A stretch of DNA of 54,885 bases from an uncultured Verrucomicrobiota bacterium (GTDB taxonomy: Bacteria > Verrucomicrobiota > Kiritimatiellia > PWTM01), in the NCBI GenBank assembly GCA_964386675.1, contig CAYLTB010000002.1, forward strand, positions 1 through 54,885. The letters are read 5' to 3'. Made by a program: the position numbers and the translations under genes. Under the pieces are notes generated by a model. The model ran no database searches and was not told where the DNA came from. It saw nothing but the letters and a program-made list of their open reading frames with translations. The first letter of the stretch is position 1. Each line of letters begins with the position of its first letter. Below, piece by piece: positions 10,625 through 40,529 of the stretch.

Positions 10625-10717
10625 GACCGGCAGCGGCGGTTGTGGCGGTGAATCGGAAGGAAAGAGAAGGAAACCACGACGAACACGAAAGAGCGCGGGA
10701 AGAAAATCATCGGCGGC

Positions 10718-12783: not shown

Positions 12784-13302
12784 TTACGCCAGCCGGTCCT
12801 CGATCAGGCGGCGGCTGCGCGGGTCAAGGCGGGCGATGTCGTCCACGATGAACGTTCCGCCGGCGTGGTCCTTGAACGTGACGCGGCCGTCTTCGCGCAG
12901 CCGGATGTCCTCGGCGTGCTCGACCTGAAGCTCGAACGGGCCGCGGTCCGTCTCGACGTTCCAAACCATCACGTCGAAGCGGTCGTCCACGGCGTCCACG
13001 CGCGTGATCCGCGGGAAGAACTCCTGCGCGGCCAGCTCCTCGGCGATCAGCGCCGCCGTCGCCGGATCGAGTCCGGCGCGCGTGGCCAGCAGGTGGACTT
13101 CCGCGCCGTCCTTGTCGCGGATCGAGAGGTATTCCTCCGGCGCGGTCCACGGGAAGCAGCGGGCCAGCCGCACCGGGCAGACCGGTTCGGCGCCGGGGCG
13201 GTGAAGCGTCAGCCGCCCGCGCTCGTCGCGGGTCAGCCGGATCGGGCCCGCGGATTCCGCGGGACCGCCGGCGTTCTCGGCGCTGGGGGCGGGGTCGTTC
13301 AT
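12784..13302 (-). CDS. DUF1854 family protein
   Basis: 172 aa. RCFPWTAPEEYLSIRDKDG...FFPRITRV...WNVETDRGP...F.V typical of DUF1854. 4-nt overlap with the upstream ABC exporter. Confidence 0.7.
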   Translation of the reverse strand: MNDPAPSAENAGGPAESAGPIRLTRDERGRLTLHRPGAEPVCPVRLARCFPWTAPEEYLSIRDKDGAEVHLLATRAGLDPATAALIAEELAAQEFFPRITRVDAVDDRFDVMVWNVETDRGPFELQVEHAEDIRLREDGRVTFKDHAGGTFIVDDIARLDPRSRRLIEDRLA

Positions 13303-15542: not shown

Positions 15543-15913
15543 GGGCGCAAATCAGCGCCGCATCATCGGCGTCCGCGGGCCCAAAGTCACGCAAGAAGCG
15601 GCTGCCGGCGAACCGCCGCCGGCGTGGGCGAACCGGCCGTTAGGAAGTTGTTGGCGGCGGCGTTGAGACCTGGGCGCGTCGTTCTCGACGCCCTGTTCTG
15701 GATCTGTCTTCGAAGGACGATCCCCGCCCGGGTGGCCTTTTGCCCACTCCCGCAGGGGGACCGGAAACGGAAGAAGAGTGACGGCGTGGTTAGAGTTGCG
15801 CTCGTCGAAGGAACGAGGGATGCGGGGAAGGATGGCGACGATGGGAAGCGATTTTGGAAGAAACCGACGCGAGCCAGGCCCGGCTGAAAAGCCGTGTTTC
15901 GCCGGGTAGACGC

Positions 15914-17314: not shown

Positions 17315-17591
17315 GGAGCAGCCTCCGTCGCAGGACTCCGCCACTCTGCGCGTCCGGGCCCGCCGGATCGTGCCATTTCCGTCGAGTATGTGAGACGACG
17401 GCCGGAAAGAAAAGGCAAGACTCAAGCCGCGGGTGTTGTCGAAGACCACCGAACCTCGCCGTCGAGCCGCCTCGGAACGGGCGGCGGCCATCTCCCGGCG
17501 GACGGGCACAAGCGTTGACCGGCTCGGATGCGTGGCCTTCGGAGTCCGCTGCAGGTGTTCCGGCATCCGACGCATGGCGGAGACGTCGGGA

Positions 17592-19262: not shown

Positions 19263-19836
19263 GGGAGGCTCTCGCTGTGGTTATGGACGTCTCGAACCGT
19301 TGACCTCACCCTAGGCTAAAAGGACCCTCGACCGGCCCGCATCGAGCCGGCGCCCTGGCGAGATTCGCCTCGCGGAGCGCGCGGGCATTTTCCCGACCCT
19401 GCCGCCCGGATCGTTCCGGGCGACAAGCGCGGAGTTCCGCCATGCTCCCGCGGGAGTGCGCGCATCGGCGGATGTCGTTCGAAGGGCAGAGTCGCGAGCA
19501 TGGCCGCGGTATCGTGCCGGCGGTGCGATCGAATACCGGACCGTGTACGCCCAGGGCCATCCCCGTCGCAGCGGCGGCGCCGGGAAGATCCGCTCGGTCC
19601 GGGCGATGCCGGACCGGCTCCTTGGATCGCCCGACCCGGGTTGCGAATCCGGCCTGCACGCCGGCGATCGCGGCGTTGACCTTCGCGGCTGATGCATCGT
19701 TCATGACACAGCTCCCCAAGACCCGACTCGGAGGAAGCGCCCCGGCACAGGGGTTCGCTTTCCCGATCATCTTGTAGGAGTCATCAGCCCGCAGGGCGGT
19801 TGGATCGAAGGGGGGACTCCATCCCCGGGACGGACG

Positions 19837-20778
19837 CTACCGCGAAGATTCCGATGAATCAACTGCAAATGGCGTCCGTGGTCGCTCCGGGTAGAGCGCC
19901 AGCAGCGCCGGCGCAAAGTCGTCGAGGCGGCGGACGCCGGCGCGCAGGCGTGCGGCGCCGCGGCCCAGCGCGATCAACGGCACGGGATTCAGCGTGTGAT
20001 GGCGCGTCGTGAGGTCCTCGATATTACCGTGGTCGCTGATCAGCGCGAGCAGGCCGCGCCGCGTGCGTGCCCACGGGGCCAGCGCCGTCAGAAACCGGTC
20101 CAGCTTCGCGAGCACCGCCTCAACGTCGCGCCGCTCGCCGCGGTGCGCCGCCAGATCGCTCTCGAAAAATTCGAACAGCGTAAAATCATGGACGCGCGCG
20201 ATGCCCAGCAAATGCGCGGCGGCCGTTTCCGGCGTCAACAACGGCCCGTCGTAGCCGCGGGCGCGGAGCGCGGCGCGGGTGAGATCATGATAGACGGCGC
20301 GGCCGGCCAGCAAGTCGCCGCGGTCCCGCACGGCGCCGAAGGCCGCGAGCGCGGCCGCGGTGGTGACCGAGACGCGCCTCCGTCGCCGGACTTCCTCGAG
20401 GTCGTCCGTAAAGAAAGCGTTCGCGAACGTGGCCGCATACTGCCGGCGGACCAGCTCGGAGAACAGGTTGTGCCGTTCGACGAACGCCCGCAGGCGCGGC
20501 CCCGGCATTCCTTCGACGTGTCGGCCCATACAGGCGGCCGCATTGCGCCCGGTGTACAGCGAGGCTTGGCCGGTCGCGCTCTGCGGCAGCCCCGGCACGC
20601 CCAGGCGTGCATCCACGGGAACGGCGCGGCGCAGCCAGCGCTCAAGGGTCGGGCAAACGCCTTTCCGGATCGGGCCGGCCGCCGGATCGTTGGGTCCGAG
20701 CCCCAGTCCGTCCACAAATACGAGCAGCGTGCGCGGAGCGGGCGCGGCCCGGCAGGGCCTCGGGTCGGGCGCATTCAT
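19837..20778 (-). CDS. Metalloenzyme-superfamily (alkaline phosphatase core / iPGM-phosphopentomutase-like) protein
   Basis: LLVFVDGLGLG near the N-terminus and LISDHGNIED near the C-terminus. Start could instead be 20847. Confidence 0.6.
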   Translation of the reverse strand: MNAPDPRPCRAAPAPRTLLVFVDGLGLGPNDPAAGPIRKGVCPTLERWLRRAVPVDARLGVPGLPQSATGQASLYTGRNAAACMGRHVEGMPGPRLRAFVERHNLFSELVRRQYAATFANAFFTDDLEEVRRRRRVSVTTAAALAAFGAVRDRGDLLAGRAVYHDLTRAALRARGYDGPLLTPETAAAHLLGIARVHDFTLFEFFESDLAAHRGERRDVEAVLAKLDRFLTALAPWARTRRGLLALISDHGNIEDLTTRHHTLNPVPLIALGRGAARLRAGVRRLDDFAPALLALYPERPRTPFAVDSSESSR

Positions 20779-20940
20779 GGGGCACACTATAGTCGGTCCG
20801 GCGCGATTCGTCGCCGTGTCCTGCGCGCCGCGCCTTTCTTTCTCCAAGAGGCTTGCAATACGCCGTTCGGTCTGATAAGCGAAAAGCCCCGATTAGACTT
20901 CCGCGTGCGCGGTGATTCGCGGGCGTATAAAAAAGGCTGA

Positions 20941-22407
20941 ATGAAACCCATCGTCATCCAAGATCAGCCGCGATTGAGTTTCTTTCGCACGGTATGGATC
21001 GCCGTGGACGGCATTCGATACCGGCTGTTCCGCGCCTTGGTCACGGTGGCGGTCATTGCGGTGGCGGTCGCGTTCCTGATGAACATTCTGAGCGAAAGTT
21101 TCATCAAACGCGCGGTGGCCCGGGAGACGCGCGACCGCATCGCGCGCGCGCGCCTCGTGCACGAGTGGGTGGCGCGGTTGACGGCCCCCGGCGACGTGGA
21201 GGGCATCCTCCGCGAACTGGCTGCCGGCCGTCCGGAGGCGCTGGCGGAGGCCGCGCGGTTCGGCGGATTCAACGCGGACGAAGTCGGGACTTTGCGGGAG
21301 TCCGCCGTCCTGGCGGTTCGGACGCTGGACTATCTCAACAGCTTGAACTACGCGCGTCGTCGGCGCCTGGTCCATGCGACGGCCGGGGTGGATATGCTGG
21401 CTTACCTGGCGACCCCGGAAGGCGGCCGCGCCTTCTTCGAGACGCTGGACCGAACGGCGGCGCTGCGGCTGCCGTTCCCGCGCGAGGACCTGCAGCGGCT
21501 GCTCGACGGCTGGCCGGACACGCGCGGCCGCGTGGATCGCATCCTCTCCGGCCGACGCGCGGCCGTTGCCCGCGTGACGGAGGCGCGCGGTCCGCGCGCG
21601 GTGCTGGAGGCGCTGGCCGAGGCGGACGGTCCGTTTGGTGACGCGGTCCGCGCGGCCGGCTTCCGGTTCGATGCGGCGGTGGCGGCGGCGGTCGCGGCGC
21701 AGGCGCGTCGCGAACTGGATATCCGCGCCGTGGAACGCGGACTGGACGTGCGCGCCGTTCGCCAGCTCGTGGCCCAGCACTTCGACGCGTTGCCGGGCGA
21801 CGTGACGGTCATGCAGCTCTGGCGGTTCGCGGAAGCGCCGGAGCGCGCGGAACGGATGTTGGCGGCGCTGCGGTCGGCCGGCGAATCCCGCGCCGGGCTG
21901 ATCGCCGCGCGGATCGGCGAGCTGGCGGCGCACCGGCGGGAGGCCGCCGCGCTGGAGCGGGCCGCGCGGCTGACGATTGGCGTCGGCGGCGGTTGGATGG
22001 GCTTGGGCGAACGGCTCAGCTGGCTGCTGATGGTGTCGATGCTGGTGTGCGCGATCGGCATCAGCAACGCGATGCTGATGACCGTGACCGAACGGTTCCG
22101 GGAAATCGCGACGCTGAAGTGCCTGGGCGCGCTGGACGGCTTCATCATGCTGATGTTCGTGCTCGAGAGCTGCCTGTTGGGCATTGTCGGCGGCGTGGCC
22201 GGCGGCCTGATCGGCGGCCTGATCGGCGCCGGCCGCATGCTGGCGGGATTCGGCGGCGTGGCGGGCGCGGCAATGCCGTGGGGCGACCTCGCCGTCGGCG
22301 TCGGGCTAGCGGTCGCCGTCGGCGTCGGGCTGGCGGCGATCGCGGCCGTGTATCCTTCGTTTCGAGCGGCGCGGCTGGCGCCGATGGAAGCGATGCGCGT
22401 CGAATGA
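20941..22407 (+). CDS. FtsX/MacB-type ABC permease with an atypical all-helical roughly 300-aa loop (operon gene A)
   Basis: TM1 (LVTVAVIAVAVAFLM), then a long Ala/Arg-rich region. Canonical FtsX block follows: ISNAMLMTVTERFREIATLKCLGALDGFIMLMFVLESCLLGIVGG plus two further TMs. Confidence 0.8.
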   Translation: MKPIVIQDQPRLSFFRTVWIAVDGIRYRLFRALVTVAVIAVAVAFLMNILSESFIKRAVARETRDRIARARLVHEWVARLTAPGDVEGILRELAAGRPEALAEAARFGGFNADEVGTLRESAVLAVRTLDYLNSLNYARRRRLVHATAGVDMLAYLATPEGGRAFFETLDRTAALRLPFPREDLQRLLDGWPDTRGRVDRILSGRRAAVARVTEARGPRAVLEALAEADGPFGDAVRAAGFRFDAAVAAAVAAQARRELDIRAVERGLDVRAVRQLVAQHFDALPGDVTVMQLWRFAEAPERAERMLAALRSAGESRAGLIAARIGELAAHRREAAALERAARLTIGVGGGWMGLGERLSWLLMVSMLVCAIGISNAMLMTVTERFREIATLKCLGALDGFIMLMFVLESCLLGIVGGVAGGLIGGLIGAGRMLAGFGGVAGAAMPWGDLAVGVGLAVAVGVGLAAIAAVYPSFRAARLAPMEAMRVE

Positions 22408-23216
22408 CCGTCACGGCAATCCAAACCGGCGCGCCCGCGTCGGCGGCCCGCGGCACGGAGCGCCGCGTGCTGATCCGCACGGTCGGCCTGAAGAAGTCCT
22501 ACCTGAAGAAGGGCGTGCTGACCGAAGCGCTGCGCGGACTCGACGTCGAGATCTTCTCCGGTGAATTCATTTCGGTGATGGGCCCCTCCGGCTCGGGGAA
22601 GAGCACCTTTTTCAATATGATCGGGGCGCTGGACAGCCCCAGCCAGGGCCGCGTGTTCATTGACGAGGTGGACGTCGCGCAGTTGACCGCCGAGGAGCTG
22701 GCCTACCTCCGCTGCCAGAAGATCGGCTACATTTTCCAGTCCTACAACCTCATCCAATACATGACCGCCCTGGAGAACGTGACGACGCCGATGGCCTTCG
22801 GCGGCGTGATGCCGGACGATGCGCGCCGCCGGGGCATGCGGATTCTCGAGATCGTCGGCCTCAAGGAGCGCTGGTTCCACCGGCCCATCGAGATGTCCGG
22901 CGGCCAGCAGCAGCGCGTGGCGATCGCGCGCTCGCTGGCGAACAACCCCAGCGTGCTGCTCTGCGACGAGCCGACAGCCAACCTCGATCTGCACACCGGC
23001 CAGGAAATCCTGGATATCCTCGTGCGGCTGAACAAGGAGCAGAAAGTCACGATCATCTGCGCGACGCACGACCATCGGATGATGAACGTCTGCGACCGTT
23101 TGATGTGGGTGCGGGACGGCCGCATCGAGCGTGTCGCGCGCCGCGAGGATGTGAAGATCGAGATCGGCAGCATCGGCGGCAGGCGCGCGTCCGCGCCGGA
23201 GACGAAGCCTTCATGA
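22404..23216 (+). CDS. MacB/LolD-type ABC ATP-binding protein (operon gene B)
   Basis: Walker A GPSGSGKST, Q-loop IFQSYNL, signature MSGGQQQRVAIARSL, Walker B LLCDEPTANLD, H-loop ATHD. ATGA overlaps on both sides. Confidence 0.9.
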   Translation: MTVTAIQTGAPASAARGTERRVLIRTVGLKKSYLKKGVLTEALRGLDVEIFSGEFISVMGPSGSGKSTFFNMIGALDSPSQGRVFIDEVDVAQLTAEELAYLRCQKIGYIFQSYNLIQYMTALENVTTPMAFGGVMPDDARRRGMRILEIVGLKERWFHRPIEMSGGQQQRVAIARSLANNPSVLLCDEPTANLDLHTGQEILDILVRLNKEQKVTIICATHDHRMMNVCDRLMWVRDGRIERVARREDVKIEIGSIGGRRASAPETKPS

Positions 23217-26200
23217 ATTCCGCCGGCCACCTCCGACGTCTCGGATTCGCCGCCGCCCTGGCGGCGTTCGCCGGACGCGCCCCCGCCGCGCCGCCTTCGT
23301 CCCGGTTTGCCGCGGACCTTGCAGCGCTGACGTCCGCGCCCCACCGGCTGACCGGCACGCCCGAAGGCGGCGCGGCCGCGGCGCACCTCGAACGGCGACT
23401 CCGCGAGATCGGCGCCGAGTGGGTCGTCGTTCAGCCGTTTGCCACCGTGCGCGCGGAGACGCGGCGCTGCGAACTGCGCCGGGCGGAAGGCGCGCCGCTC
23501 GCCCTGCTGCCGATGCGTCCGAACGGGCTGATGCTGCCGACGACTCCGCCGGGCGGCCTCCGCGGGCGCCTGGTCCGCGTGGGCCCGGGCGAGGCGAGCG
23601 ACTTTGCCGAGCGCGAGGTCCGCGGCGCGATCGTCGTGATGGACTTCAACGGTTCCGAGGGCTGGCTGCGCGCCTTTCGGCTCGGCGCGCAGGCGGTGGT
23701 CTTCACGCCGTCCGTCCGGCTCCACGGCACGACGGCCTACCACCTCGACGTGCAGTTGAACCTGCCGCGCTTCTATTACGACGGGCCGGCCGCCGACCTG
23801 CCCGACGGGGTGGAGGTGACGATCGAAAGCGAGATCGTCTGGCAGCCGGCCGTCGGCCGCAATATCGTCGCGTTTTTCCGCGGCACAAATCCCGTCTTCG
23901 CGCAGAACCGCGAGGAGGCGATCGTGCTGAGCGCGGACTACGACAGCTACGGCGCTGTGCCGGAACGGAGTCCCGACGCCCGCGGTGCGGCCAATGCCGC
24001 CGCGCTGCTGAAACTGGCGGAATCGCTGCGCGCTCGCCCCCCCCGCCGTCATACGCTGATCGTCTTTTTCGACGCGCAGTGGAACGCGCAGGAAGGGTCT
24101 TCGACCTTCTACATGGCGCTCGAAGACAAGCACGATCTCGCTTCGGTGGCGAAACGGCGCATGTCGCTCGACGCGGAACGCCAGTTTCTCGACGCGCTGC
24201 GGGGCGCGCTGGCCGAGCCCCACCCGCTGACGACCGCATCGCGGGTGCGGCGCGCGCTGCTCAAGCGGGTCGAAGACGCCGCCAAGAGCGGCGCCTTTGA
24301 AATCGGCGACCGAATGGCCGAACTGCGGCGCGAGCGACTCGCGCTGCGCGCGCAGCTCGGCACGCCGCCGCGCTCGAACCCGCCGCCGGAGATCATCGCG
24401 CAGATTGAGGAGATCGGACGCGAGCTGGACGAGCAACTGCAACCCGAGAAGGACCGATGGAACGACCTGCGCCGGGCGCTGAGCCGCGACCGGTACACCG
24501 GCCTCGCCCCGGAGGTCGAGGCGAAGCTTCAGTTGGCGTATGCGAAAGTCCGCGAGAGCGTCGAGCGAAGAAGCGCCGAGTTGGAACTGGAGGGCGCGCG
24601 GCTGGCGGCCGACGAGCAGCTGCAGGCGAGCCTGAAATCGTACTGGCTGACGCTGCACCTGGCGCTGTTGCTCGGCGACGCGACCGATCGTTGGGGGCTG
24701 ATCATCGGCGGCGATTCCTATTTCCGGCATCCGGACGACAACCCGGGCCTCTACGGCCGGCTGCAGAACGTCTTTCTCCGGGCGTATCGCGACCTCGAGG
24801 CCGCCGGCCGCGCGCCGGAGGCATTCGAGACGGCCACGGCCGACCAGACCCTGACGAACACGCGCATCCTGTTCGCCGGCCGCGGCGGATTGCGGCACGG
24901 CGGCGAGCCGGCGGGCGCCTTCGGTTTCTTCAATGCCGCGCTGGGCACGGTGCAGGAGGCGGCCGGCCGCGACGGGACGCCGTTCGATACGCCCGACCGC
25001 CTGGACGCCGGCCGTATCGAGCGGCAGACGGACGCGATCGCCCGGTTGCTGTTCGGATGTGCGAGCCTCGATGTGGAGGCGTCCCGGCCGGACGCTGCGC
25101 CCGAACCCGGCGAAACGGCCGGCGTCGCGGACCAGGCGGGCCTGTCGTTGCGGCGCGGCATTGTCGGCGGGAAGGAATACGCGTGGAGCCGGTTCGAGCG
25201 CGAGACCACGGCCGGCCCCACCGTCATGGGCATGCTGCCCGGAAGCTCCGTACCCGACACGCCGGTGCCCGGTGCGATGGTATTTTTCATGAATCGGAAC
25301 CCGGCGAGCCTGACCTTCAACGCAGCCAAGCCGCTCAACAGCTCGCTATTTCGCATCCTGCGCACGGACGAAAACGGCAACTACCGCCTCGGACCCTCGC
25401 CGGGCGGCGCCGGCTGGACGGACGCGCGCGGCTTCGCGGCGGTCTTCGACGATCGCGGCGAACTGGTCCTGGCGTCGAACCAGCAGACCCTGCAGCAGGT
25501 CAAGCAGCGGCTCAACGCGTTCCGCGCCCGCGCCGGCGGGATCGTCCTGCCACCGCCGCTGCGCGCCACGCTGCCGGCCGGCTCAACCGTTCGTCTGCTC
25601 TCGGCCTTCGAAAACGGGGACCTGGACCCCCGGAAGCGGCTCCACCTCGTCAACGACGGCGCGATCGCATGGTTTTCGGAGCAGCGCGAGAAGGCGGTCA
25701 AGATCTTCAACTTGGATGCGGTCTCGATGCTCGGCATCGGCCCCGAGCGGTTGGAGGAGGCCGGCGCGGAGGATGCGGCGTTCAACTGGCTCGGCGATGG
25801 GTTCCCGATGATCCCGCGCTGGACGCCCGTGCCGGCGACGCGGCGCTCGGCGGTGGACCTGTGGCGGCTGAACGAGTCGCGGCTGCGCGTGCTGCAGGGC
25901 AAGAACATCATCGACAGCTCGCTGGCGGAATTGCACGGCCGCGTGGAGGACCTGCTGCTGGAAGCGCAGCGCCGGCCGGCAACGCTCCGCGCGGAGGCGC
26001 TCGACGCCGAAGCGCTGTGGGCAGCGCGCCCGGTCTATCGGAAGACCCGCGCGATCATTGACGACCTGGTCTTTGCCGTGCTGATCCTGCTGGGCCTCGC
26101 GGTGCCGTTTGCCTTCGCGATGGAGCGCGTGGTCGTCGGCGCGGTCACGGTGTACCGCCAGATCGGCTGGTTCGTCGTATTCTTCGCGGCCACGTTTGGG

Positions 26201-28126
26201 ATCTTGTTCGTCTCGCACCCGGCCTTCGCGATCGCGAACACGCCGATCATCATCTTCCTGGGCTTCGCGATCCTGACGCTGTCGGGCATGGTCATCTCGA
26301 TCATCATGCGCAAGTTCGAGGTCGAGTTGAAGGCGATGCAGGGGATGACGGCGACCGTCCACGCGGCGGACGTCTCGCGCGTGAACACGGTGCTGGCGGC
26401 GATGCAGATGGGGATCTCGACGATGCGCCGCCGCCCGCTGCGGACGGCGCTGACGGCGGTGACGATTATCCTGCTGACCTTCACGATCTTGAGTTTCGCC
26501 TCCTTCGGCACGCAATCGGGACTGCTACGGCTCTTCGTCGCGCCGGCGCCCGGCTATGCCGGCGCCTGGATGCACGATGCCAACTGGCAGCCGATCGCGC
26601 CGGAGCTGCTGGATACCGTGGAAGGCCGCTGGGGCGCCGACGCCGACGTATGCGGCCGCTGGTGGATCTCGCCGCGCGCGCAGGCCGCCGCCGGCGGCCT
26701 GCTGACGCGCGAGGACGGCACGCGCCCGATCGAGATTCCCGCGGTGCTGGGGTTCGATGCGCGGGAAATCCGCCGCCGGCCGGATCTCGCCGCGCTGGTC
26801 GAGAGCGATCTGGAAGGCGCGATCCAGATCACGCCGGCGGTGGCCCGCGCGCTGGGTGTCGCGCCGGGCGACCGGGTGCGGTTCCGCGGCAAGTCGTTCC
26901 GCGTCGCGCGGCTCACGGACGCGACGGCGTTCTCGTCGGTGCAGGACATGGACGGCGCGAGCGTCTTGCCGGTGGACTTCACCGAGGTGCGGTCCAGCCA
27001 GCCGGCGAGCACCCAGGTTAGCGAGGAAGCCTCGCTGCATGCCTCCGTCAACTGGACGAGCCTGCCGGTGGATTCCGTGGCGATCCTGTCGGCCGCGGAA
27101 GCGCGGGCCATGGGCGCGGCGCTGCACGGCATCGCGGTCTATGCGGCGGACGTGCCGGCGGCGCGCGAGATCGGCGCGGCGCTGGCGCGAATGCTGCCGA
27201 TGCCGGTGGCCGTGACGCAGGAAAACGGCGTCTACCGCCAGGTGCTCGGAACGCTGGTGGCGGCCAGCGGCGCGGCGGACCTGTTTTTCCCGATCCTGCT
27301 GGGCGGCCTGGTGATCTTCGGAACGATGCTCGGCTCGGTGGCCGATCGCGAGCGCGAAATCTACACGTTCAGCGCGCTGGGCCTGGCGCCGCGGCACGTC
27401 GCCACGCTGTTTCTGTCCGAGGCGCTCGTCTATTCGCTGATCGGCGGCATGGGCGGTTACCTGCTGGCGCAAGGCATGGTCCGCATCCTCACCGCGCTGG
27501 CCGAGCACGGCTGGGTGCGCGTTCCGGAAATGAACATGTCCTCGACGAACACGATCGTCACGATCCTGATCGTCATGGCCACCGTGCTCGTTTCGGCGAT
27601 CTACCCGGCGGTCAAGGCTTCGAAGTCGGCCAACCCGGGCTTGATGCGGACGTGGCGGCCGCCGGCGCCCGACGGCGACCGGAGGGACATGATCTTCCCG
27701 TTCACGGTTTCCGAGTACGACCTGACGGGCGTCGTCAGCTTCCTGAAGGAACACTTCGACAACCACAGCGACACGGGGCTCGGTCGCTTCATGGCGCGCG
27801 AGAGCGCGCTGGTCCGGCCGCAGGGCACGCTCGGACTCCGCTCCACGCTGATGCTCGCGCCGTTCGACCTCGGCGTCAGCCAGCGCTTCCACCTGCAGGC
27901 GGTGCCCAGCGAGATCCCGGGCATTGACGAGGTGCATATCCGCCTCGAACGGATTTCGGGCCAGCCGAAAGACTGGCAGCGGCTGAACCGCGTCTTCCTG
28001 AAAGACCTGCGCCAGCAATTCCTGATCTGGCGCTCGATCCCGCAGGAGGCCATGGAAACCTATCGCGAGCGGACGCTGACGCACTTCGGCGCCGCGGCGG
28101 CGGAGACGAAACCGACGGCGAACTGA
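23213..28126 (+). CDS. 1637-aa fusion: signal/anchor + PA/M28 peptidase-like ectodomain + coiled coil + large ectodomain + FtsX-type permease module(s) + C-terminal cytoplasmic domain (operon gene C)
   Basis: N-terminus MNSAGHLRRLGFAAALAAFAG. PA-like GAIVVMDFNGSEGW...GAQAVVF. M28-like blocks with altered ligands (see findings). TM cluster from about 26060. MRRRPLRTALTAVTIILLTF permease start at 26423. FtsX block EREIYTFSALGLAPRHVATLFLSEALVYSLIGGMGGY. Confidence 0.8.
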   Translation: MNSAGHLRRLGFAAALAAFAGRAPAAPPSSRFAADLAALTSAPHRLTGTPEGGAAAAHLERRLREIGAEWVVVQPFATVRAETRRCELRRAEGAPLALLPMRPNGLMLPTTPPGGLRGRLVRVGPGEASDFAEREVRGAIVVMDFNGSEGWLRAFRLGAQAVVFTPSVRLHGTTAYHLDVQLNLPRFYYDGPAADLPDGVEVTIESEIVWQPAVGRNIVAFFRGTNPVFAQNREEAIVLSADYDSYGAVPERSPDARGAANAAALLKLAESLRARPPRRHTLIVFFDAQWNAQEGSSTFYMALEDKHDLASVAKRRMSLDAERQFLDALRGALAEPHPLTTASRVRRALLKRVEDAAKSGAFEIGDRMAELRRERLALRAQLGTPPRSNPPPEIIAQIEEIGRELDEQLQPEKDRWNDLRRALSRDRYTGLAPEVEAKLQLAYAKVRESVERRSAELELEGARLAADEQLQASLKSYWLTLHLALLLGDATDRWGLIIGGDSYFRHPDDNPGLYGRLQNVFLRAYRDLEAAGRAPEAFETATADQTLTNTRILFAGRGGLRHGGEPAGAFGFFNAALGTVQEAAGRDGTPFDTPDRLDAGRIERQTDAIARLLFGCASLDVEASRPDAAPEPGETAGVADQAGLSLRRGIVGGKEYAWSRFERETTAGPTVMGMLPGSSVPDTPVPGAMVFFMNRNPASLTFNAAKPLNSSLFRILRTDENGNYRLGPSPGGAGWTDARGFAAVFDDRGELVLASNQQTLQQVKQRLNAFRARAGGIVLPPPLRATLPAGSTVRLLSAFENGDLDPRKRLHLVNDGAIAWFSEQREKAVKIFNLDAVSMLGIGPERLEEAGAEDAAFNWLGDGFPMIPRWTPVPATRRSAVDLWRLNESRLRVLQGKNIIDSSLAELHGRVEDLLLEAQRRPATLRAEALDAEALWAARPVYRKTRAIIDDLVFAVLILLGLAVPFAFAMERVVVGAVTVYRQIGWFVVFFAATFGILFVSHPAFAIANTPIIIFLGFAILTLSGMVISIIMRKFEVELKAMQGMTATVHAADVSRVNTVLAAMQMGISTMRRRPLRTALTAVTIILLTFTILSFASFGTQSGLLRLFVAPAPGYAGAWMHDANWQPIAPELLDTVEGRWGADADVCGRWWISPRAQAAAGGLLTREDGTRPIEIPAVLGFDAREIRRRPDLAALVESDLEGAIQITPAVARALGVAPGDRVRFRGKSFRVARLTDATAFSSVQDMDGASVLPVDFTEVRSSQPASTQVSEEASLHASVNWTSLPVDSVAILSAAEARAMGAALHGIAVYAADVPAAREIGAALARMLPMPVAVTQENGVYRQVLGTLVAASGAADLFFPILLGGLVIFGTMLGSVADREREIYTFSALGLAPRHVATLFLSEALVYSLIGGMGGYLLAQGMVRILTALAEHGWVRVPEMNMSSTNTIVTILIVMATVLVSAIYPAVKASKSANPGLMRTWRPPAPDGDRRDMIFPFTVSEYDLTGVVSFLKEHFDNHSDTGLGRFMARESALVRPQGTLGLRSTLMLAPFDLGVSQRFHLQAVPSEIPGIDEVHIRLERISGQPKDWQRLNRVFLKDLRQQFLIWRSIPQEAMETYRERTLTHFGAAAAETKPTAN

Positions 28127-28140
28127 TCCCTTGGCGCGAC

Positions 28141-30144
28141 ATGCACCCGGACAAAGAACTCGAACAATATCGCTCGATCATGGAGGTGCCCTCGACCTTC
28201 CAGGAGGGCTTCCGCTGGTCGTCGCTGCTGGGCGCGATCTTCGTCGCGTTCCTGATGGTGCCGGGGGCGATCTACATGGGACTGCTCGCCGGCACGATGG
28301 AGATCGGCGCGGCGGCGTCCTGGGTGACCGTGATCCTGTTCATTGAGGTGGCCAAACGCGCGCACCGCAATCTGAACAAGTCGGAAATCTTCGTCCTGTT
28401 CTACATGGCTTCGACAGCCATGGGCATGCCGTTTTCGGGCCTGCTGTATCAGCAATTCTTTATCAACAGCGATGCCGCGGCCGCCACCGGCATCGCCGAG
28501 CAGCTTCCGCGCTGGTATGCGCCGCCGCTGGGATCGGCCTCGTACGGCGACCGGACGTTCTTCCGGGCGGAGTGGCTGCCGGTGATCGGCATGATGATCT
28601 TCGGCTCGTTCTTCAGCCAACTGGCCAACATGGTACTCGGCTACGGGCTGTTCCGAATCGCCAGCGACGTCGAGAAACTGCCGTTCCCGATGGCGCCGAT
28701 CGGCGCACAGGGCATCATGGCGATGGCCGAGGACATGGAGGAAAAGACCCGGAAGTCGGCCGAGTCGTCCTGGCGCTGGCGCGTGTTCGCGATCGGCGGG
28801 GCGATCGGCCTGGGCTTCGGCTTCATTTACCTGTTGCTGCCGACGCTGACCGGTGCGCTGACCGGCACGCCGGTGCAGATCTTCCCGATTCCGTTCTCCG
28901 ATTTCACGCAGCAGACGGGCCGATTTCTGCCCGCCGTCGCCACCGGCATCACCTGGGACTTCGGCCAGGTCATCCTGGGCATGGTCATGCCGTTCTACGG
29001 CATTATCGGAGGCTTCATCGGCTTTTTGTCGATCCTGACGGCCAACCCGATCCTGTACCGGCAGGGGATCCTGCGCACGTGGAAGTTCGGGGACGACACG
29101 ATCGCGACGATCTTCAACAACAACATGGATTTCTATTTCAGCTTCCACATCGGCGTCTCGGTCGCCATCGCGGCGGCCGGCATCATCGCGGTCGTGGGCA
29201 GCGTCCGGAAAATGCGCCGCGCGCGCGCCTCCAACGTCGCGGCAACCGCCGGCTCCGCGGTCCAGGGTGGACGCGGCGATATTCCGTCGTGGGTGGTGAT
29301 CGCGGTATATGTCTTCATCGTGGTGACCTACATCTGGGTCTCCGCGGCCCTGCTTCGCTGGCACCACGGCGGCTGGACGCCCGGCATCCGCAACCTGGTG
29401 CTGATCTTGATCGTGCTCGGTTTCGCCTACACGCCGTTGATCAGCTATGTCACCGCGCGGCTGGAGGGCATGGTCGGCCAGGTGGTCGAGATTCCGATGA
29501 TCCGCGAGGCTGCGCTGATCCTCAGCGGCTACCGCGGCGTCGCCTGCTGGTTTCTGCCAATGCCAATCGCGAACTACGGCGCGATGACGGTGTTCTACCG
29601 GCAGTGCGAGCTGACCGGCACCCGGTTCACCAGCATCTGGAAGACCAAGTTCTTCCTGTACCCGATCATCCTCCTGTCCTCGATCTTCTTCATGAACTTC
29701 ATCTGGGGCCTCGACAAGGTGCCCTCCAACGCCTACCCCTACGCGCAGCGGATCTGGGAGCTGAACGCCGCCAACCAGACCATCATGTTCTCGGCGACGC
29801 TCGGCGAATTCTCGCGCTTCGAGCAGGCCTTCCGCTGGCTGTATGTCTCCATCGGCGCCGCCTTCGGCAGCGTGCTGTTCTTCGGGTTGCGCTGGTTGGG
29901 CGCGCCGGTCATGCTGACCTACGGCGTTGTGCGCGGGCTCGGCCAGAACGTCACGCATTCGCCGATTCCCCAGCTGGTGGGCGCGCTCATCGGCCGTTTC
30001 TATTTCCAGCGGCGGCTCGGTCTGAAGTGGCGGCAGTACATTCCCGTCGTCGCCGCCGGGTTCGCCTGCGGCATGGGTCTGATCACCACGGTCGGCGTCG
30101 GCGTCACCTTCCTGAACAAGGCGATCATCAAACTGCCGTTCTGA
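28141..30144 (+). CDS. Large polytopic membrane protein, family unassigned (operon gene D)
   Basis: 667 aa with more than 12 hydrophobic segments throughout and protein-like composition. 14-nt gap from gene C. Possible OPT-like transporter, but not established. Confidence 0.7.
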   Translation: MHPDKELEQYRSIMEVPSTFQEGFRWSSLLGAIFVAFLMVPGAIYMGLLAGTMEIGAAASWVTVILFIEVAKRAHRNLNKSEIFVLFYMASTAMGMPFSGLLYQQFFINSDAAAATGIAEQLPRWYAPPLGSASYGDRTFFRAEWLPVIGMMIFGSFFSQLANMVLGYGLFRIASDVEKLPFPMAPIGAQGIMAMAEDMEEKTRKSAESSWRWRVFAIGGAIGLGFGFIYLLLPTLTGALTGTPVQIFPIPFSDFTQQTGRFLPAVATGITWDFGQVILGMVMPFYGIIGGFIGFLSILTANPILYRQGILRTWKFGDDTIATIFNNNMDFYFSFHIGVSVAIAAAGIIAVVGSVRKMRRARASNVAATAGSAVQGGRGDIPSWVVIAVYVFIVVTYIWVSAALLRWHHGGWTPGIRNLVLILIVLGFAYTPLISYVTARLEGMVGQVVEIPMIREAALILSGYRGVACWFLPMPIANYGAMTVFYRQCELTGTRFTSIWKTKFFLYPIILLSSIFFMNFIWGLDKVPSNAYPYAQRIWELNAANQTIMFSATLGEFSRFEQAFRWLYVSIGAAFGSVLFFGLRWLGAPVMLTYGVVRGLGQNVTHSPIPQLVGALIGRFYFQRRLGLKWRQYIPVVAAGFACGMGLITTVGVGVTFLNKAIIKLPF

Positions 30145-30153
30145 CGGAGCGCC

Positions 30154-30876
30154 ATGAGCGAAGTCCTCATCCAGATCCGCGGCGTCCGAAAAGAGTTCGA
30201 CCTCGGCCGGATCGTCATGCATGCGCTCAAGGAGATCAACCTCGACATCTTCCGCGGCGAGTACCTGTCGGTCATGGGGCCCTCCGGCTCCGGCAAGAGC
30301 ACACTGTTCAACATGATCGGGGCGCTCGACCGCCCGACCGCCGGCACGATCCACGTCGCCGGCGTCGAGCTCACCGCGCTGCCGCCGCGCAAACTGGCGC
30401 ACTTCCGCGGCAACTACATCGGCTACGTCTTCCAGTCCTACAACCTGCTGCCGGCCTACGACGCCGTGACCAACGTCGCGATGCCGCTCCTCTTCAGCGG
30501 CCGGCGCCCCGACGAGGCGGCCGCGCGCGCCCGCGAAGTGCTCACCCGCGTCGGCCTCGGCGAGCGCCTGACGCACCGGCCCGACGAGCTCTCCGGCGGC
30601 CAGCAGCAGCGCGTCGCCATTGCGCGCGCGCTCGCGAACGATCCGGCGATCATCCTCGCCGACGAGCCGACGGCGAACCTCGACCTGCACACCGGCGAGG
30701 AGATCATCCACCTGCTGCGCCGCCTCTGCCGCGAGCTCGGTGTCACGGTCATCACCGCGACGCACGACCACAAGATGCTCGACGTCTCCGACCGGATCCT
30801 TTGGATCGAAGACGGCGCCATCGCCCGGCTCGAACGCCGCGAGAACCTGGAAATCTCCACCGGTACGGTCGAATGA
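30154..30876 (+). CDS. MacB/LolD-type ABC ATP-binding protein, paralog of gene B (operon gene E)
   Basis: GPSGSGKST, VFQSYNL, LSGGQQQRVAIARAL, ILADEPTANLD, ATHDH. Roughly half of aligned positions are identical to gene B by eye, including the C-terminal tail. Confidence 0.9.
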   Translation: MSEVLIQIRGVRKEFDLGRIVMHALKEINLDIFRGEYLSVMGPSGSGKSTLFNMIGALDRPTAGTIHVAGVELTALPPRKLAHFRGNYIGYVFQSYNLLPAYDAVTNVAMPLLFSGRRPDEAAARAREVLTRVGLGERLTHRPDELSGGQQQRVAIARALANDPAIILADEPTANLDLHTGEEIIHLLRRLCRELGVTVITATHDHKMLDVSDRILWIEDGAIARLERRENLEISTGTVE

Positions 30877-30892
30877 GCCGGGGGGCGGCGAC

Positions 30893-33295
30893 ATGAGCCG
30901 ACGCAGCGTTCTGGCGGCCCTGCTGGGCGTTGCGGCGCTGTCGGCGGTCTCGTTCTACAACCTCTACGTCCTCCGCAATACGAACCTGGTCGGTTCGTAC
31001 CTGCCGGTGGGCGTGTTCGGGGGCCTCCTCCTTCTCGCGATCCTTTCCCAGTGGTTCCGGCGCGGGGCGGGCTCGCCGGCCGGCGTGGGCGCGGCCGTCG
31101 CCGTGCTGCTGTTCGGGTGCGGCATCGTCGGCTCCGCGCTGCTGGACCACGCCTCGACGCTGGCCATGCTCCCCTGGCGGCTGGACCGGTTGTATCCGGA
31201 CTGGCGTGGCGACCCGGCGTTGCCGGACGCGGCGGCCATCCGCGACGAAGTGGCCCTCGCGCGGGCGCTGGCGAATGCCGCCACGGCCCCGCCCGGCGAT
31301 CCGGCCGGCGTCATCGCCCGACGGATTCCCGAGGCCCTTCGGACGCGGGTCCGCACCCGCGAGTATGCGTCGGATCTGGTCGGACGCGAGGCGTGGCGCG
31401 AGGCGCTGTACGTCGCGCTGTCCGATCCGACGCTGGCCGACGAGGTGCCGCCGGAACGCCGGCCACCGCTGCCAAACTACATTCGCCGTTGGTTGCGGCG
31501 TCCCCCACAGGAACGGACGCCGAATGAAACGCTCGCTGTGAACCGCGCCCTGCTGGACGCGGCCTTCCCGCGGGAGATCGTCCCGCGCCGTCCTTCCGCA
31601 CTGGACCTGGCGCCGCCGGTCATGCTGGCCGATCCGTCCGCGGCGCCGGCGGTTGCACTGGAAGGCTTTGCCACGGGATTGGGGGAACCGAATCGGCCCT
31701 TCTCCTTCCGGGAAGTGCCCTGGGCCGCCTGGCGGCGGACGTTCGGGTTTTGGGGGCCGATGATCCTCGCGATGATCGTCATCGTGACCGGCCTGGCCCT
31801 GGTGCTGCACCGGCAGTGGTCGGAACATGAGCGCCTGCCCTATCCGGTGGCGGAGGTGGCGCGCGCCCTGCTGCCCGAGCCGGGCCAGACCGTCGCCGAG
31901 GCGCTCCGCCGTCGAGCTTTCTGGGCGGCCTTCGGTCTGGTGTTCTGCGTTCACGGCGCCAATTACGCCGCCCAATGGTGGCCGGACTTCGTGATTCGCG
32001 TGCCGCTCGAAATCGATCTGCGGCCGCTGCTACAGATCGCGCCGGTGATGCAGCGCCATTACACAATGCAATTGTTCCGGCCCACGCTGTACTTCTCCGC
32101 GATCGGACTGGCGTTCTTCCTGTCCTCCGATGTTGCGCTTTCGCTCGGTATCGGGCCGTACCTATTCTCGGTCTTGGTTGGAATCGCGGCGGGTCTCGGC
32201 TATGCCTTTGGAGGCGGGTTCCTGACGCAGAGTCTGCAAAGCCAGTTCAACGCCGGCGCCTACACGGCCATGTTTTTCGCGATCCTCTATTCGGGACGCC
32301 ATTACTACCTTTCGGCGGCACGGCGGGCGCTGGGTCTGCCGGCCCGTGATTCCGTGGAAGCAGGGGCTGTGTGGGGGGCGCGTGCTGCGGCGCTGGGCAT
32401 GGCCGTTTTCGTCGGCGGGCTCATGGCGGTCGGGGTCGAGCCGGCGCTGGCGGTGCTCTACACGCTGGGCGTCGTGATGATCTACACTGTGTTGAGCCGG
32501 CTGCTGGCGGAGGCCGGCGTGTTCTATATGCACTCCGGTTTCTTTCCCTGCGTGGTTCTGTGGAGTTTTCTGGGCACGCAGGCGGTCGGCTACGAGCAAT
32601 TGCTGTTGCTCGGGCTGGTCACGGCCATGTTTTTGAGCGACCCGAAAGATGCCCTGATGCCGTTCGCGATGATGGGCCTGCGGATCGCAGAGCGCTGCGG
32701 CGCGCGTCCGGCGGCGGTCGCCCGCTGGGGTGCGATCGGCGCCGCGCTCGCGTTGCTCATCGCCGCTCCGACCATGATCTATCTGCAATACCGACACGGC
32801 GCTCTGACGGCGGGCCACCCGTGGATGCACACCCATGTTCCGCGCGGCGCGTTCGTCCGCGCTTCGGCGATGACCCGCACGCTCCAGGCGCAGGGCACGC
32901 TCGGAGAGGCCGCCGCCATCCGTGGCCTCGCGCGCTTCGGTCGCGCGACGCCCCAGCCGGAGCAGGTGGCCGCTTTCAGTGCGTTTTTTGCGCTCACGCT
33001 GCTCTTCACCTTCCTGCGTCACCGATTCGCGCGCTGGCCGTTCCACCCGCTGATCTTCCTGGTCATGGGCACCTACCAGTCCAGCCTGATGGCCTTCTCG
33101 GTGCTGCTCGGGTGGGCCGTCAAGGGATTCGTCATGAAATACGGCGGCGCGCGTGCCTACCAAGGACTCAAACCAGTGATGATCGGACTGGTCGCCGGGG
33201 AGATCATGGCCGCCACGCTGCCGCTGGCCGTTGGCGCGATCTACGCCGCTGTCACCGGTCAGGCGCCGCCCCAGTTCCGCATCCTGCCCGGCTGA
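30893..33295 (+). CDS. Large polytopic membrane protein with a roughly 200-aa soluble insert, family unassigned (operon gene F)
   Basis: 800 aa. Start MSRRSVLAALLGVAAL at 30893, downstream of the track ORF start. Many TM segments. The C-terminal block GWAVKGFVMKYGG..Y..KPVMIGLVAGE resembles GALIGRFYFQRRLG..W..IPVVAAGFACG of gene D. Confidence 0.7.
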   Translation: MSRRSVLAALLGVAALSAVSFYNLYVLRNTNLVGSYLPVGVFGGLLLLAILSQWFRRGAGSPAGVGAAVAVLLFGCGIVGSALLDHASTLAMLPWRLDRLYPDWRGDPALPDAAAIRDEVALARALANAATAPPGDPAGVIARRIPEALRTRVRTREYASDLVGREAWREALYVALSDPTLADEVPPERRPPLPNYIRRWLRRPPQERTPNETLAVNRALLDAAFPREIVPRRPSALDLAPPVMLADPSAAPAVALEGFATGLGEPNRPFSFREVPWAAWRRTFGFWGPMILAMIVIVTGLALVLHRQWSEHERLPYPVAEVARALLPEPGQTVAEALRRRAFWAAFGLVFCVHGANYAAQWWPDFVIRVPLEIDLRPLLQIAPVMQRHYTMQLFRPTLYFSAIGLAFFLSSDVALSLGIGPYLFSVLVGIAAGLGYAFGGGFLTQSLQSQFNAGAYTAMFFAILYSGRHYYLSAARRALGLPARDSVEAGAVWGARAAALGMAVFVGGLMAVGVEPALAVLYTLGVVMIYTVLSRLLAEAGVFYMHSGFFPCVVLWSFLGTQAVGYEQLLLLGLVTAMFLSDPKDALMPFAMMGLRIAERCGARPAAVARWGAIGAALALLIAAPTMIYLQYRHGALTAGHPWMHTHVPRGAFVRASAMTRTLQAQGTLGEAAAIRGLARFGRATPQPEQVAAFSAFFALTLLFTFLRHRFARWPFHPLIFLVMGTYQSSLMAFSVLLGWAVKGFVMKYGGARAYQGLKPVMIGLVAGEIMAATLPLAVGAIYAAVTGQAPPQFRILPG

Positions 33296-33462: not shown

Positions 33463-33539
<77 letters not shown>

Positions 33540-38651: not shown

Positions 38652-40529
38652 GTGCGCCCGTGAGGGTGCTTGGTCAGGGAGGTGCGAGTCCTCCCGCGTC
38701 CGGATTGCCGTCCGGGCGATAGTGGAACGTAACTGCGTTCGTGCGAACGGAGGTGGGGAGCAACGGGAAACGAACAGGTCGTCCGCACGATAAGGAACTC
38801 GATACGGCCAGGCGACGGGGCGAGCCGGCTAGGGAACGAGCGAAGCCTGATTCCGCAGAGCGGGATCGAACGAACACGCTGAACAAAGCACGGCGGAGTG
38901 AAACAAAGCGATGTTCTCCGGCGTCGGGTGGGTGGAGGCGGAAGGCATGGAAGGCCAAGCGCAGTAAGCGGGGATACCCGCCGGGCGATGAAGCGTCGGG
39001 CGGGAGTCAGAGTCGCCATAGTAGCGTGGAACGCCGTGAAAGCGGTGGGAGCGAAGGGCGACAGGGAGGAAGAGACGGAATGGACACAGGCGAGGAAACG
39101 AGATCGGCGCGAGTGCCTGAAAAGGCTATCCCGGACGAAGAAGCCCAGGCCCGGCGGCAACGCTGGGCGTGGGTGGAACCGAGCGTGTGGACAGACCGGA
39201 TGCTGGCGGCCCTGGAAAACGGGGTCCAAAAGGGAAAATGGTTCAGTCGGATCGACAAGGTGCATCGGAAAGCGAACCTGGCCAGCGCGTTTCGAGAAGT
39301 GAAGCGCAACGGCGGCGCGGCGGGGGTGGATCATGTCAGTGTGGCGGCGATCGAGCGCGACCTGGACGGGGAACTGACCCGGTTGAGCGAAGCGTTGCGC
39401 ACCGACACATGGCAACCCCAGGCGGCCCGCCGGGTCTTTATAGATAAGCCCGGCACACGCGAGAAGCGGCCGTTGGGTATCCCGACGGTGCGGGATCGGG
39501 TGTGCGAGGGCGCGGTGCGACACGTCTTGGAACCGATCTTCGAGCCGGTGTTCGATGGGAACAGTTTCGGATTCCGCCCCGGACGCGGCGCGAAAGACGC
39601 GCTGCGGGCGGTGGATCGGGAACTGAAGGCGGGCAACGTCTACGTGGTGGATGCCGACATCAAGCGGTATTTCGACACGATTCCGCACGAACGACGGCTG
39701 GCGCGGGTCAGCGAGCGCATATCCGATGGGCGCGTGATGGCGATGCTGGAAGCGTTACTCAAGCGCGGTGTGCTGGAGGGGCGCGACTGGCAAGCCACGG
39801 AAACCGGGACACCGCAAGGCGGGGTCATCGGTCCGCTGCTGGCGAACGTGTATCTGCACCCGCTGGATCAAGCGATGCGGCGGGCAGGATATACGATGAT
39901 CCGGTGTGCGGACGATCTGGTGATCCTGTGCGTGAAACCGGAAGACGCGGCGGAGGCGCAAGCCCTGCTGAGAGCCTGGGTGGAGGAGCAGGGGCTCGTG
40001 TTGCACCCCGTCAAGACCCGTATCGTCAACCTGAACGAACCGGGACAGGGGTTCGACTTCCTCGGCTACCACGTTGAGCGCACGCGACGCGGGAAACTGG
40101 ATCGGTGGCCCCGGCGTAAAAGCCTGGCCAAACGGAAAACGGACATCCGCGCGGCGATGCATCGGGCCAACGGCAAGAGCCTGCCGGACATCATCGCGAC
40201 GGTCAATCGGACGACACGGGGATGGTACGAATACTTCAAGCACAGCAATATCCAAACGTTCCCCGAATTGGACGGATGGATCCGTGGACGCTTGAGGGCG
40301 ATACTCCGCAAACGGGCGGGCCTGCGAGGGCGCGGACGGGGGCGGGATCATCACCGATGGAACAATGCCTACTTCGCGGCGATGGGGTACTTCAGTCTGA
40401 CCGACACCCGCAGGGCCGCGAGCCAGTCCGCTTGACGGTAAGACTTCCGACTGGAGAGCCGTATGCGGGAAATCCGCCAGTACGGTTCGGAGGGAGGGGA
40501 GACGTTCAAACCGTCTTCCCTACCCCTAT
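38652..40529 (+). mobile_element. Complete bacterial group II intron (about 1.88 kb), compact and most consistent with class C-like
   Basis: 5' GTGCGCCCGTGAGGGTGC.... Domain V at 40456-40488: GAGCCGTATGCGGGAAATCCGCCAGTACGGTTC (AGC triad, 2-nt bulge). Domain VI stem with bulged A (40522) 7 nt before the 3' end ...CCCCTAT. RT/maturase ORF sits in domain IV. Confidence 0.8.
39080..40435 (+). CDS. Group II intron reverse transcriptase/maturase (no En/HNH domain evident)
   Basis: RT blocks: GAAGVDHVS, RRVFIDKPGTREKRPLGIPTVRDRV, FGFRPGRGAKDA, YVVDADIKRYFDTIPH, GTPQGGVIGPLLANVYL, xADD box (CADDLVIL). Maturase X: RGWYEYFKHS. Start taken at MDTGEE. Confidence 0.9.
   Translation: MDTGEETRSARVPEKAIPDEEAQARRQRWAWVEPSVWTDRMLAALENGVQKGKWFSRIDKVHRKANLASAFREVKRNGGAAGVDHVSVAAIERDLDGELTRLSEALRTDTWQPQAARRVFIDKPGTREKRPLGIPTVRDRVCEGAVRHVLEPIFEPVFDGNSFGFRPGRGAKDALRAVDRELKAGNVYVVDADIKRYFDTIPHERRLARVSERISDGRVMAMLEALLKRGVLEGRDWQATETGTPQGGVIGPLLANVYLHPLDQAMRRAGYTMIRCADDLVILCVKPEDAAEAQALLRAWVEEQGLVLHPVKTRIVNLNEPGQGFDFLGYHVERTRRGKLDRWPRRKSLAKRKTDIRAAMHRANGKSLPDIIATVNRTTRGWYEYFKHSNIQTFPELDGWIRGRLRAILRKRAGLRGRGRGRDHHRWNNAYFAAMGYFSLTDTRRAASQSA

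Follow-up and report, generated by a model that had tools for sequence, protein, structure and literature searches.

A conserved gene cassette with two FtsX-type permeases, two MacB/LolD-type ATPases and predicted OPT-fold membrane proteins in an uncultured Verrucomicrobiota bacterium

The closest described relatives of the locus presented here are the type VII ATP-binding cassette (ABC) systems, among them MacB, LolCDE, FtsEX and YtrEF. In Escherichia coli, lolC-lolD-lolE encodes a unit in which one ATPase serves two permeases, and in Bacillus subtilis the FtsX-type transporters YknWXYZ and BceAB work with an extra polytopic membrane protein, namely YknW and the kinase BceS. A second family of relevance is the OPT/Yellow Stripe-like (YSL) family (PF03169), whose characterised members are, to our knowledge, autonomous importers, and we know of none that is encoded inside an ABC operon. 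We describe a tightly packed six-gene operon, A(FtsX)-B(ATPase)-C(giant FtsX protein)-D-E-F, on the plus strand of a 54,885-nt stretch of DNA with a G+C content of ~68% (hereafter the window; contig CAYLTB010000002.1 of an uncultured Kiritimatiellia bacterium). An initial annotation had singled out its 3' half (28141-33295), consisting of the MacB-type ATPase E and the two large polytopic proteins D and F on either side of it.

The gene junctions are ATGA stop-start overlaps at A/B and B/C and gaps of 14, 9 and 16 nt at C-D, D-E and E-F, respectively. The permeases A and C are both of the FtsX type and the ATPases B and E are paralogs; the gene for D is tied to that for C and, almost without exception, to that for E, and F is optional. 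The explanation that we favour, and to which we give about an even chance of being correct, is a two-module type VII (MacB/FtsX-type) ABC machine made up of A-B and C-E, with D as a dedicated OPT-fold carrier and F as a facultative second one.

The open reading frames (ORFs) of D, E and F have the coordinates and lengths first reported for them (Table 1), with the start of F placed at 30893 by its homologs, and the mechanical ORF beginning at 30620. The description of E as a MacB-type ATPase is borne out by its ABC_tran match (Table 1) and by its best NCBIfam matches, which are LolD, MacB, DevA and FtsE, all of them below the equivalog cut-offs where these were compared (LolD, MacB and FtsE; 225.8 bits for LolD against a cut-off of 307.75). 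The equivalog level of the LolCDE system is likewise not reached by C, which scores 12.3 bits against LolC with a cut-off of 473. B and E are 53% identical, with the Walker A, Q-loop, signature, Walker B and H-loop all intact as read in their alignment; they are paralogous, canonical MacB/LolD-type ATPases, and E shows no divergence from ordinary ATPases of the MacB type. The FtsX domains of A and C are only 27% identical, against 53% for B and E, which means that the cassette did not simply arise as a tandem copy of one permease-ATPase pair. The statement that E is bracketed by non-FtsX proteins holds literally, as D and F are hydrophobic throughout and a Pfam scan gives no FtsX domain in either, but E does not lack an FtsX partner: C and A in the same operon both carry the domain (Table 1), and in one related locus (L171) a trio of FtsX module, D and E stands alone beside a transposase gene.

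Both permeases have the hallmark of type VII systems, an FtsX domain with a periplasmic domain between the first and second transmembrane helices (TM1 and TM2), and the permease-ATPase-permease order of A-B-C resembles that of lolCDE. A consists of TM1, a periplasmic domain of ~310 amino acids (aa) and three C-terminal TMs, and matches the pneumococcal MacB-like permease 5xu1, LolF, MacB, LolC and YtrF among sequences in the PDB; the corresponding matches of C include MacB, 5xu1, LolC, LolF and YtrF. The coupling-helix motifs of both are intact. In C the FtsX module contains the motif DREREIYTFSALGL in the TM2-TM3 region, which we take to be the coupling helix for the nucleotide-binding domain of MacB-type permeases, and this region is the most conserved block of the protein, with a column identity of 0.91 at aa 1361-1400. 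Hydropathy and a 60-sequence alignment predict for C the order signal-like N-terminus, periplasmic ectodomain of ~920 aa, three TMs, cytoplasmic linker, FtsX module and cytoplasmic tail. It is the M28-like ectodomain, the three extra TMs and the C-terminal domain that set C apart from described type VII permeases. The tail (aa 1473-1637) has a column identity of 0.66-0.78 across 60 homologs and gives no Pfam match in a scan of the whole of C. A duplicated FtsX permease of the ADOP/YbbP-like kind was considered for C and rejected, the first TM cluster having no similarity to the FtsX block by hhalign.

The same membrane module accounts for a match to a model of the defence-system database PADLOC. 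Residues 957-1514 of C (26081-27754) match PDLC01991, 'CARF_m8--CARF_LolE_TM', with an E-value of 4.6e-48, the three-TM cluster and the FtsX module being the parts that align. The presumed CARF part of the model is unmatched and the genomic context is neither CRISPR nor defence. A CARF domain in the tail of C, which the model name would suggest, is unsupported, as the tail scanned alone matches no PADLOC model; D and F match none either.

Within the ectodomain of C from the window, Peptidase_M28 gives a weak match that lies below threshold (E 0.034). We took the canonical M28 motif to be His, Asp, Glu-Glu, Asp/Glu, His, and at the first three of these positions the C family alignment has N or P in place of the first His, R, G or A in place of Asp, and Q-A in place of Glu-Glu. 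The fact that these zinc ligands are not conserved means that the ectodomain is probably a pseudo-peptidase, which binds rather than cleaves, and on these ligand columns an active M28 aminopeptidase was rejected. Some Planctomycetota carry C as two separate genes, one with the M28 domain (1047-1231 aa) and one for the FtsX part (660-760 aa), as at L172:6165-12292, L167:6894-12010 and L170:527-6207 (locus labels with positions). Such split homologs are annotated with PF04389, in one case at a strong level (L172), and the homolog P0371 also with PF05450 Nicastrin. M28-like ectodomains of the nicastrin and transferrin-receptor type are inactive and serve as binding or gate-keeping modules. C resembles them in its M28-like core with replaced metal ligands, and differs in that its domain is bacterial and is fused to or encoded beside an FtsX permease.

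When the genomes of species representatives were scanned with a sequence pattern for D, at least 592 relatives of D were confirmed among the 599 matches listed, distributed over Verrucomicrobiota, Lentisphaeria/Victivallales (Lentisphaerota), Kiritimatiellia, Planctomycetota/Phycisphaerae/Brocadiia, Fibrobacterota and Omnitrophota. Gene order was counted in the best 80 of these at least 592 loci. C lies directly upstream of D in 80/80, and D is never seen there without a C-like gene, which fits very well with the earlier suggestion that D might be an accessory channel of the A-B-C machine. Of the 73 loci with sufficient room, 70 have an ATPase gene no more than 1 kb downstream of D (all but L045, L066 and L063), and B, nearly always together with A, is found upstream of C wherever the contig extends far enough. 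F adjoins the cassette in half of the loci (40/80), and stands before A, stands after E or is absent. C and D are kept together without a nearby ATPase in L045, L066 and L169, the last being a divergent pair (30% and 38% identity) on a 10-kb contig with no ATPase gene. This persistence of C-D pairs means that the tightest link of D is to C and not to E.

The median identities to the window proteins in these loci are 45% for A, 78% for B, 48% for C, 66% for D, 71% for E and 37% for F, by which measure D is under strikingly strong constraint for a membrane protein. Many of the cassettes are accompanied by two more genes. One, which we call G, encodes a conserved soluble protein of ~290 aa just upstream of the cassette in 40/80 loci (for example L017:1300-2208, L068:1353-2225, L167:3213-4115 and L172:2084-2953); it has the N-terminal motif W.W..L..P.DWEML.[YF]S...GRC.FADR and conserved Cys residues, and belongs to no Pfam or NCBIfam family. 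The other, H, encodes a protein of 120-140 aa that is PqqD-like, of the peptide-chaperone type, and in at least 54 loci it separates the genes for G and A (for example L167:4115-4546, L172:2953-3357 and L068:~2310-2657). The full form of the cassette is (G-H-)A-B-C-D-E(-F).

Comparison with Pfam and the PDB, as the initial annotation had envisaged, yielded the OPT family for relatives of D, DUF6785/DUF6784 for F and the fold of Yellow Stripe 1 for both. D from the window has no Pfam match, even at an E-value of 10. PF03169 (gathering score 25.8 bits) is matched by 19 of 25 members of its family that are 66-94% identical to it, the best at 1.6e-11, and four members that were rescanned reach 27.6-35.9 bits, all above the cut-off, mainly through their C-terminal ~110 residues. 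In the relative P0077, aa 150-645 are aligned to positions 103-616 of the OPT model. In the source annotations D appears either as 'peptide transporter' or as 'OPT/YSL family transporter', whereas the name given to C is 'ABC transporter permease'. Many charged residues of D are invariant, for example E69, R73, D176, E178, R378-G379-D380, R440 and E442. The AlphaFold model of D, built from 25 close homologs, is poor, with a predicted local distance difference test (pLDDT) score of 52.7. A Foldseek search of the PDB with this model returned only barley Yellow Stripe 1 (HvYS1; 7wst_A at 1.3e-5 and 7wsr_A at 4e-5, probability 1.0, TM-score 0.47-0.54), the next match having an E-value of 0.1. Our sole reason for using so poor a model is that the one significant match it gives is in line with the OPT evidence from Pfam.

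For F the structural assignment is firmer. F matches DUF6785 at aa 255-636 (3.1e-61, 207.9 bits; gathering score 25 bits) and DUF6784 at aa 697-783 (6e-20, 71.7 bits; gathering score 26.4 bits), as do 70/70 and 69/70 of its relatives, respectively. F itself has no match to PF03169, and one of the 70 relatives does (E 0.0023). The model obtained from a deep alignment of 150 sequences has a pLDDT of 96.7 and a predicted template-modelling score of 0.95. The PDB entries that it retrieves are again those of HvYS1 only, with 7wsr_A at an E-value of 1.1e-5, probability 1.0 and a target-normalised TM-score of 0.69 over 840 alignment columns; the next match has an E-value of 0.1 and a TM-score of ~0.1. 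The soluble, Pro/Arg/Ala-rich insert that had been noted in F does correspond to an extramembrane stretch, at ~aa 101-283, which follows the fourth helix rather than the second or third, and it is no low-complexity linker: the part at aa 105-235 is modelled as an ordered helical domain with a pLDDT above 95. This part is missing from the ~680-aa homologs P0131-P0136 and, going only by the positive-inside rule and the even helix count, would lie in the cytoplasm.

At least 4900 clusters at 50% identity match the F-family profile. Its neighbours were informative in 37 metagenomic loci, 18 of which adjoin cassette genes; in the remaining 19 no such gene lies near, and an adjacent ABC ATPase is absent from every informative stand-alone locus. 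Adjacency to an ABC ATPase, which had been proposed as a check on both proteins, is therefore the rule for D (70/73) and fails for a large part of the F family (19/37). In the stand-alone loci sampled, genes for DUF6785/DUF6784 proteins have as neighbours a xylose-isomerase-like TIM barrel (AP_endonuc_2), a GFO/IDH/MocA oxidoreductase, a GDSL esterase, BNR, pectate-lyase-like and raffinose-synthase-like proteins and a sulfatase, with carbohydrate-related neighbours at L120, L136, L160, L163, L164, L096 and L004. These neighbourhoods suggest a sugar-related substrate for the stand-alone branch. Some F-family matches span ~4 kb (L150:4848-8944; L141:397-4124; L052:14128-18214, minus strand) or are doubled on one contig (L108:3092-5524 and 9123-11168), and look like tandem or duplicated F-family genes.

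In sequence, D and F are related marginally at best. BLASTP of one against the other gives one weak block (EKLPFPMAP in D against ERLPYPVAE in F, E 0.027). Profiles of the two families, compared by hhalign with shallow and deeper alignments in global and local mode, give probabilities of 4% and 9.4%, neither of them significant, with the low-stringency alignment (9.4%) collinear over the full length. The similar C-terminal module that had been described for the two is not recovered, as hhalign of the modules alone aligns 2 columns at an E-value of 0.17. The best sub-block pairs D 144-187 with F 286-322 around an E-x-L-P-[FY]-P motif (E 9e-5, probability 59%), and a second, marginal one pairs D 64-103 with F 45-85 (E 4.4e-4). 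Searches of PDB sequences with either family profile gave no relevant match, and fold comparison alone succeeded. What remains of the proposal that D and F are distant paralogs is the shared OPT/Yellow-Stripe fold and not a significant similarity of profiles; judging by the models, they represent two very divergent branches of the OPT/YSL superfamily that are related through the shared fold only.

HvYS1 (PDB 7wsr/7wst), the structure to which both are likened, is a homodimer for which its authors propose an elevator-like mechanism (PMC9691689). D and F are similar to OPT/YSL proteins in size and polytopic character, and this fold, which has core and scaffold domains built from inverted repeats, is the sole significant structural match of either, with members of the D family reaching the Pfam threshold. 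They differ from OPT/YSL proteins in that D of the window lies below detection by PF03169 and F is filed under DUF6785/DUF6784, in that both are only 12-14% identical to HvYS1, and in the extra helical insertion of 130 aa in F. With respect to type VII systems, the cassette is set apart by its two ATPase genes and by an OPT-fold gene fixed between a permease and its ATPase. A pump of the MacAB-TolC type finds no counterpart, as the scans of A-F and of flanking ORFs revealed neither a membrane-fusion adaptor (HlyD-type) nor anything TolC-like. YknWXYZ and BceAB-BceS offer a parallel in that a MacB-type permease/ATPase pair functions with a co-encoded integral membrane protein; their partners are a Yip1-type protein and a histidine kinase, which do not have a transporter fold and show no homology to D or F.

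In the machine that we propose, the partner through which E is energised would be the FtsX module of C, that of B would be A, and D and F would have no part in this. Hydrolysis of ATP would then move the large periplasmic domains, including the pseudo-peptidase ectodomain of C, which may hold a peptide-like ligand. D would carry this ligand across the cytoplasmic membrane, and F would act as a second, exchangeable carrier of the same fold. The substrate of the cassette is probably peptide-like, the hints being the assignment of the D family to OPT, the M28/nicastrin-like ectodomain of C and the PqqD-like protein in at least 54 related loci. Import appears the more likely direction for D because the characterised OPT/YSL members known to us are importers. 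The alternative, in which a peptide from the cytoplasm is passed on by the PqqD-like protein of most other cassettes and then exported, would fit equally well.

Several observations weigh against the proposed machine. The genes for G and the PqqD-like protein are absent from the window, as determined with family hidden Markov models against all six-frame ORFs, and the peptide argument is thus borrowed from relatives. The neighbours of the stand-alone F relatives are carbohydrate genes and not peptide genes. The model of D, on which part of its fold assignment depends, is of low confidence. D is conserved nearly to the level of the ATPases (a median of 66% against 45-48% for A and C), which is unusual for a mere accessory carrier. 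The A-B-C order mimics lolC-lolD-lolE, and E would therefore be left free for D. Mirror-tree analysis with partial correlation for A, B, C, D and E, using 44 sequences (the window and 43 loci), fails to discriminate between pairings, with values of 0.26 for E-A, 0.24 for E and the membrane part of C, and 0.16 for E-D.

The rival that survives best, and which we still regard as rather unlikely, is a coupling at the level of the pathway only, in which D and F are ordinary proton-driven carriers of the OPT type, co-expressed with the ABC machine for, e.g., uptake or release of its product, and form no complex with it. This seems reasonable for a fold whose solved member HvYS1 transports alone as a homodimer (PMC9691689), and it would suit the F family, with its many genes that stand alone beside those of sugar metabolism and its varying position in the cassette. 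It has more difficulty with a C-D-E order that is invariant across several phyla and with a D that is never found without a C-like gene in the best 80 loci. The much higher conservation of D compared with F and the FtsX proteins points to constraints from fixed partners. Co-expression without a complex is accordingly a good fit for F and a poor fit for D.

A second rival is the one raised by the initial annotation, namely that E pairs directly with D or F as its transmembrane partner. In the form that we considered, A-B-C would be a LolCDE-like unit in which two different FtsX permeases share ATPase B, and E would energise the OPT-fold D and perhaps F, giving an ATP-driven transporter built on the fold of a secondary carrier. 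We consider this quite unlikely, and nothing that we found specifically favours it. The points that can be cited for it are the match of the A-B-C order to lolC-lolD-lolE, the position of E after D in 70/73 loci, the ATPase-like conservation of D, and the 27% identity of the A and C FtsX domains against 53% for B and E, which speaks against a simple tandem copy. They are opposed by the canonical and highly conserved coupling-helix motif that C retains, by the three loci in which C-D is kept without a nearby ATPase, by the lack of an adjacent ABC ATPase in the informative stand-alone F-family loci, by the ordinary MacB-type character of E and by a residual covariation of E with D that is not above that of E with the FtsX proteins. 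We also know of no ABC ATPase that couples to an OPT fold. It is similarly improbable, in our estimate, that D is no autonomous carrier and is driven mechanically or energetically by the ABC machinery, whether docked to E or gated by C, alongside a LolCDE-like A-B-C; if this were true, C-D-E would constitute a novel class of transporter, a primary/secondary hybrid confined to the Planctomycetes-Verrucomicrobia-Chlamydiae (PVC) group and Fibrobacterota. We regard it as highly improbable that the cassette serves in signalling or against phages as a module of the CARF_m8-LolE type, in which D and F would be the effectors in the membrane. Only the PADLOC match of C can be cited for this, and it is limited to the membrane module; the tail of C, D and F match no model, the cassette is vertically conserved and syntenic across whole phyla with high sequence conservation, and scans of neighbouring ORFs brought up no other recognisable defence gene.

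Table 1. Positions of the cassette genes, of segments within C and F, and of the tRNA gene that follows, in the window.
Feature	Coordinates	Strand	Description	Evidence or detail
A	20941..22407	+	488 aa, FtsX/MacB-type permease	Pfam FtsX 1.3e-12
B	22404..23216	+	270 aa, MacB/LolD-type ABC ATPase	ABC_tran 1.9e-29
C	23213..28126	+	1637 aa, giant FtsX-type permease	FtsX 3e-11 at aa 1359-1471
M28/nicastrin-like segment of C ectodomain	23861..24115	+	aa 217-301	
Extra three-TM cluster of C, before FtsX module	26066..26305	+	aa 952-1031	hydropathy
FtsX module of C	26450..27628	+	aa 1080-1472	TM1 (aa 1080-1098), ~245-aa periplasmic domain, TM2-4
Predicted cytoplasmic C-terminal domain of C	27629..28123	+	aa 1473-1637 (~165 aa)	
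D	28141..30144	+	667 aa, polytopic protein, putative divergent member of OPT/YSL superfamily	
E	30154..30876	+	240 aa, MacB/LolD-type ABC ATPase, B paralog	ABC_tran 6.4e-35
F	30893..33295	+	800 aa, DUF6785 + DUF6784, predicted OPT/Yellow-Stripe fold	
Lineage-specific Arg-rich helical insertion in F	31205..31597	+	aa 105-235, ~130 aa	between helix 4 and conserved P-x-M-L-A-D-P loop
tRNA-Ala (CGC)	33463..33539	+	downstream end of operon	Rfam and ARAGORN

The gene upstream of A (19837-20847, metalloenzyme superfamily) lies on the minus strand, so that the operon begins with A. An ORF of 314 aa on the plus strand that abuts A (19996-20940) was rejected as a member; it is Arg-rich, has no homologs and no Pfam match, and is most likely a high-GC artefact overlapping this minus-strand gene. 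A scan for promoters and terminators gave nothing informative. Other features of the window include a fluoride riboswitch (Rfam RF01734, 53.9 bits) at 19768-19835 on the minus strand, which lies ~500 nt upstream of a gene for a Na+/H+ exchanger with CBS (minus strand, 17592-19262), with no convincing ORF between them. Further upstream on the minus strand (13299-17890), positions 13299-15542 encode an ABC exporter in which ABC_membrane and ABC_tran are fused, and positions 15914-17890 encode a glycoside hydrolase that is GH39-like; both appear unrelated to the cassette. A group II intron occupies 38741-40529 on the plus strand, with a reverse transcriptase/maturase ORF at 38741-40435 (RVT_1, GIIM) followed by the Rfam Intron_gpII match at 40454-40529.

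In full-text searches of the library used, neither DUF6785 nor DUF6784 was mentioned by any paper, and no paper brought OPT, FtsX/MacB, PqqD or M28 together in this way or described the cassette. The novelty lies in a proposed type VII ABC system that has an OPT-fold protein as an obligate component, encoded by a cassette conserved across bacteria of the PVC group. If the proposed reading is true, DUF6785/DUF6784, with their at least 4900 clusters, would gain an OPT/Yellow-Stripe fold that is missing from the annotations retrieved, and a conserved envelope system would be exposed in at least 592 species genomes. The presence of a gene with the fold of a secondary carrier between an FtsX permease and its ATPase would also raise the question of whether the mechanotransmission of type VII systems can be coupled to an elevator-type carrier. 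Beyond the cassette itself, the stand-alone relatives of F, lying as they do among carbohydrate-active genes, may therefore be overlooked importers in polysaccharide-degrading phyla.

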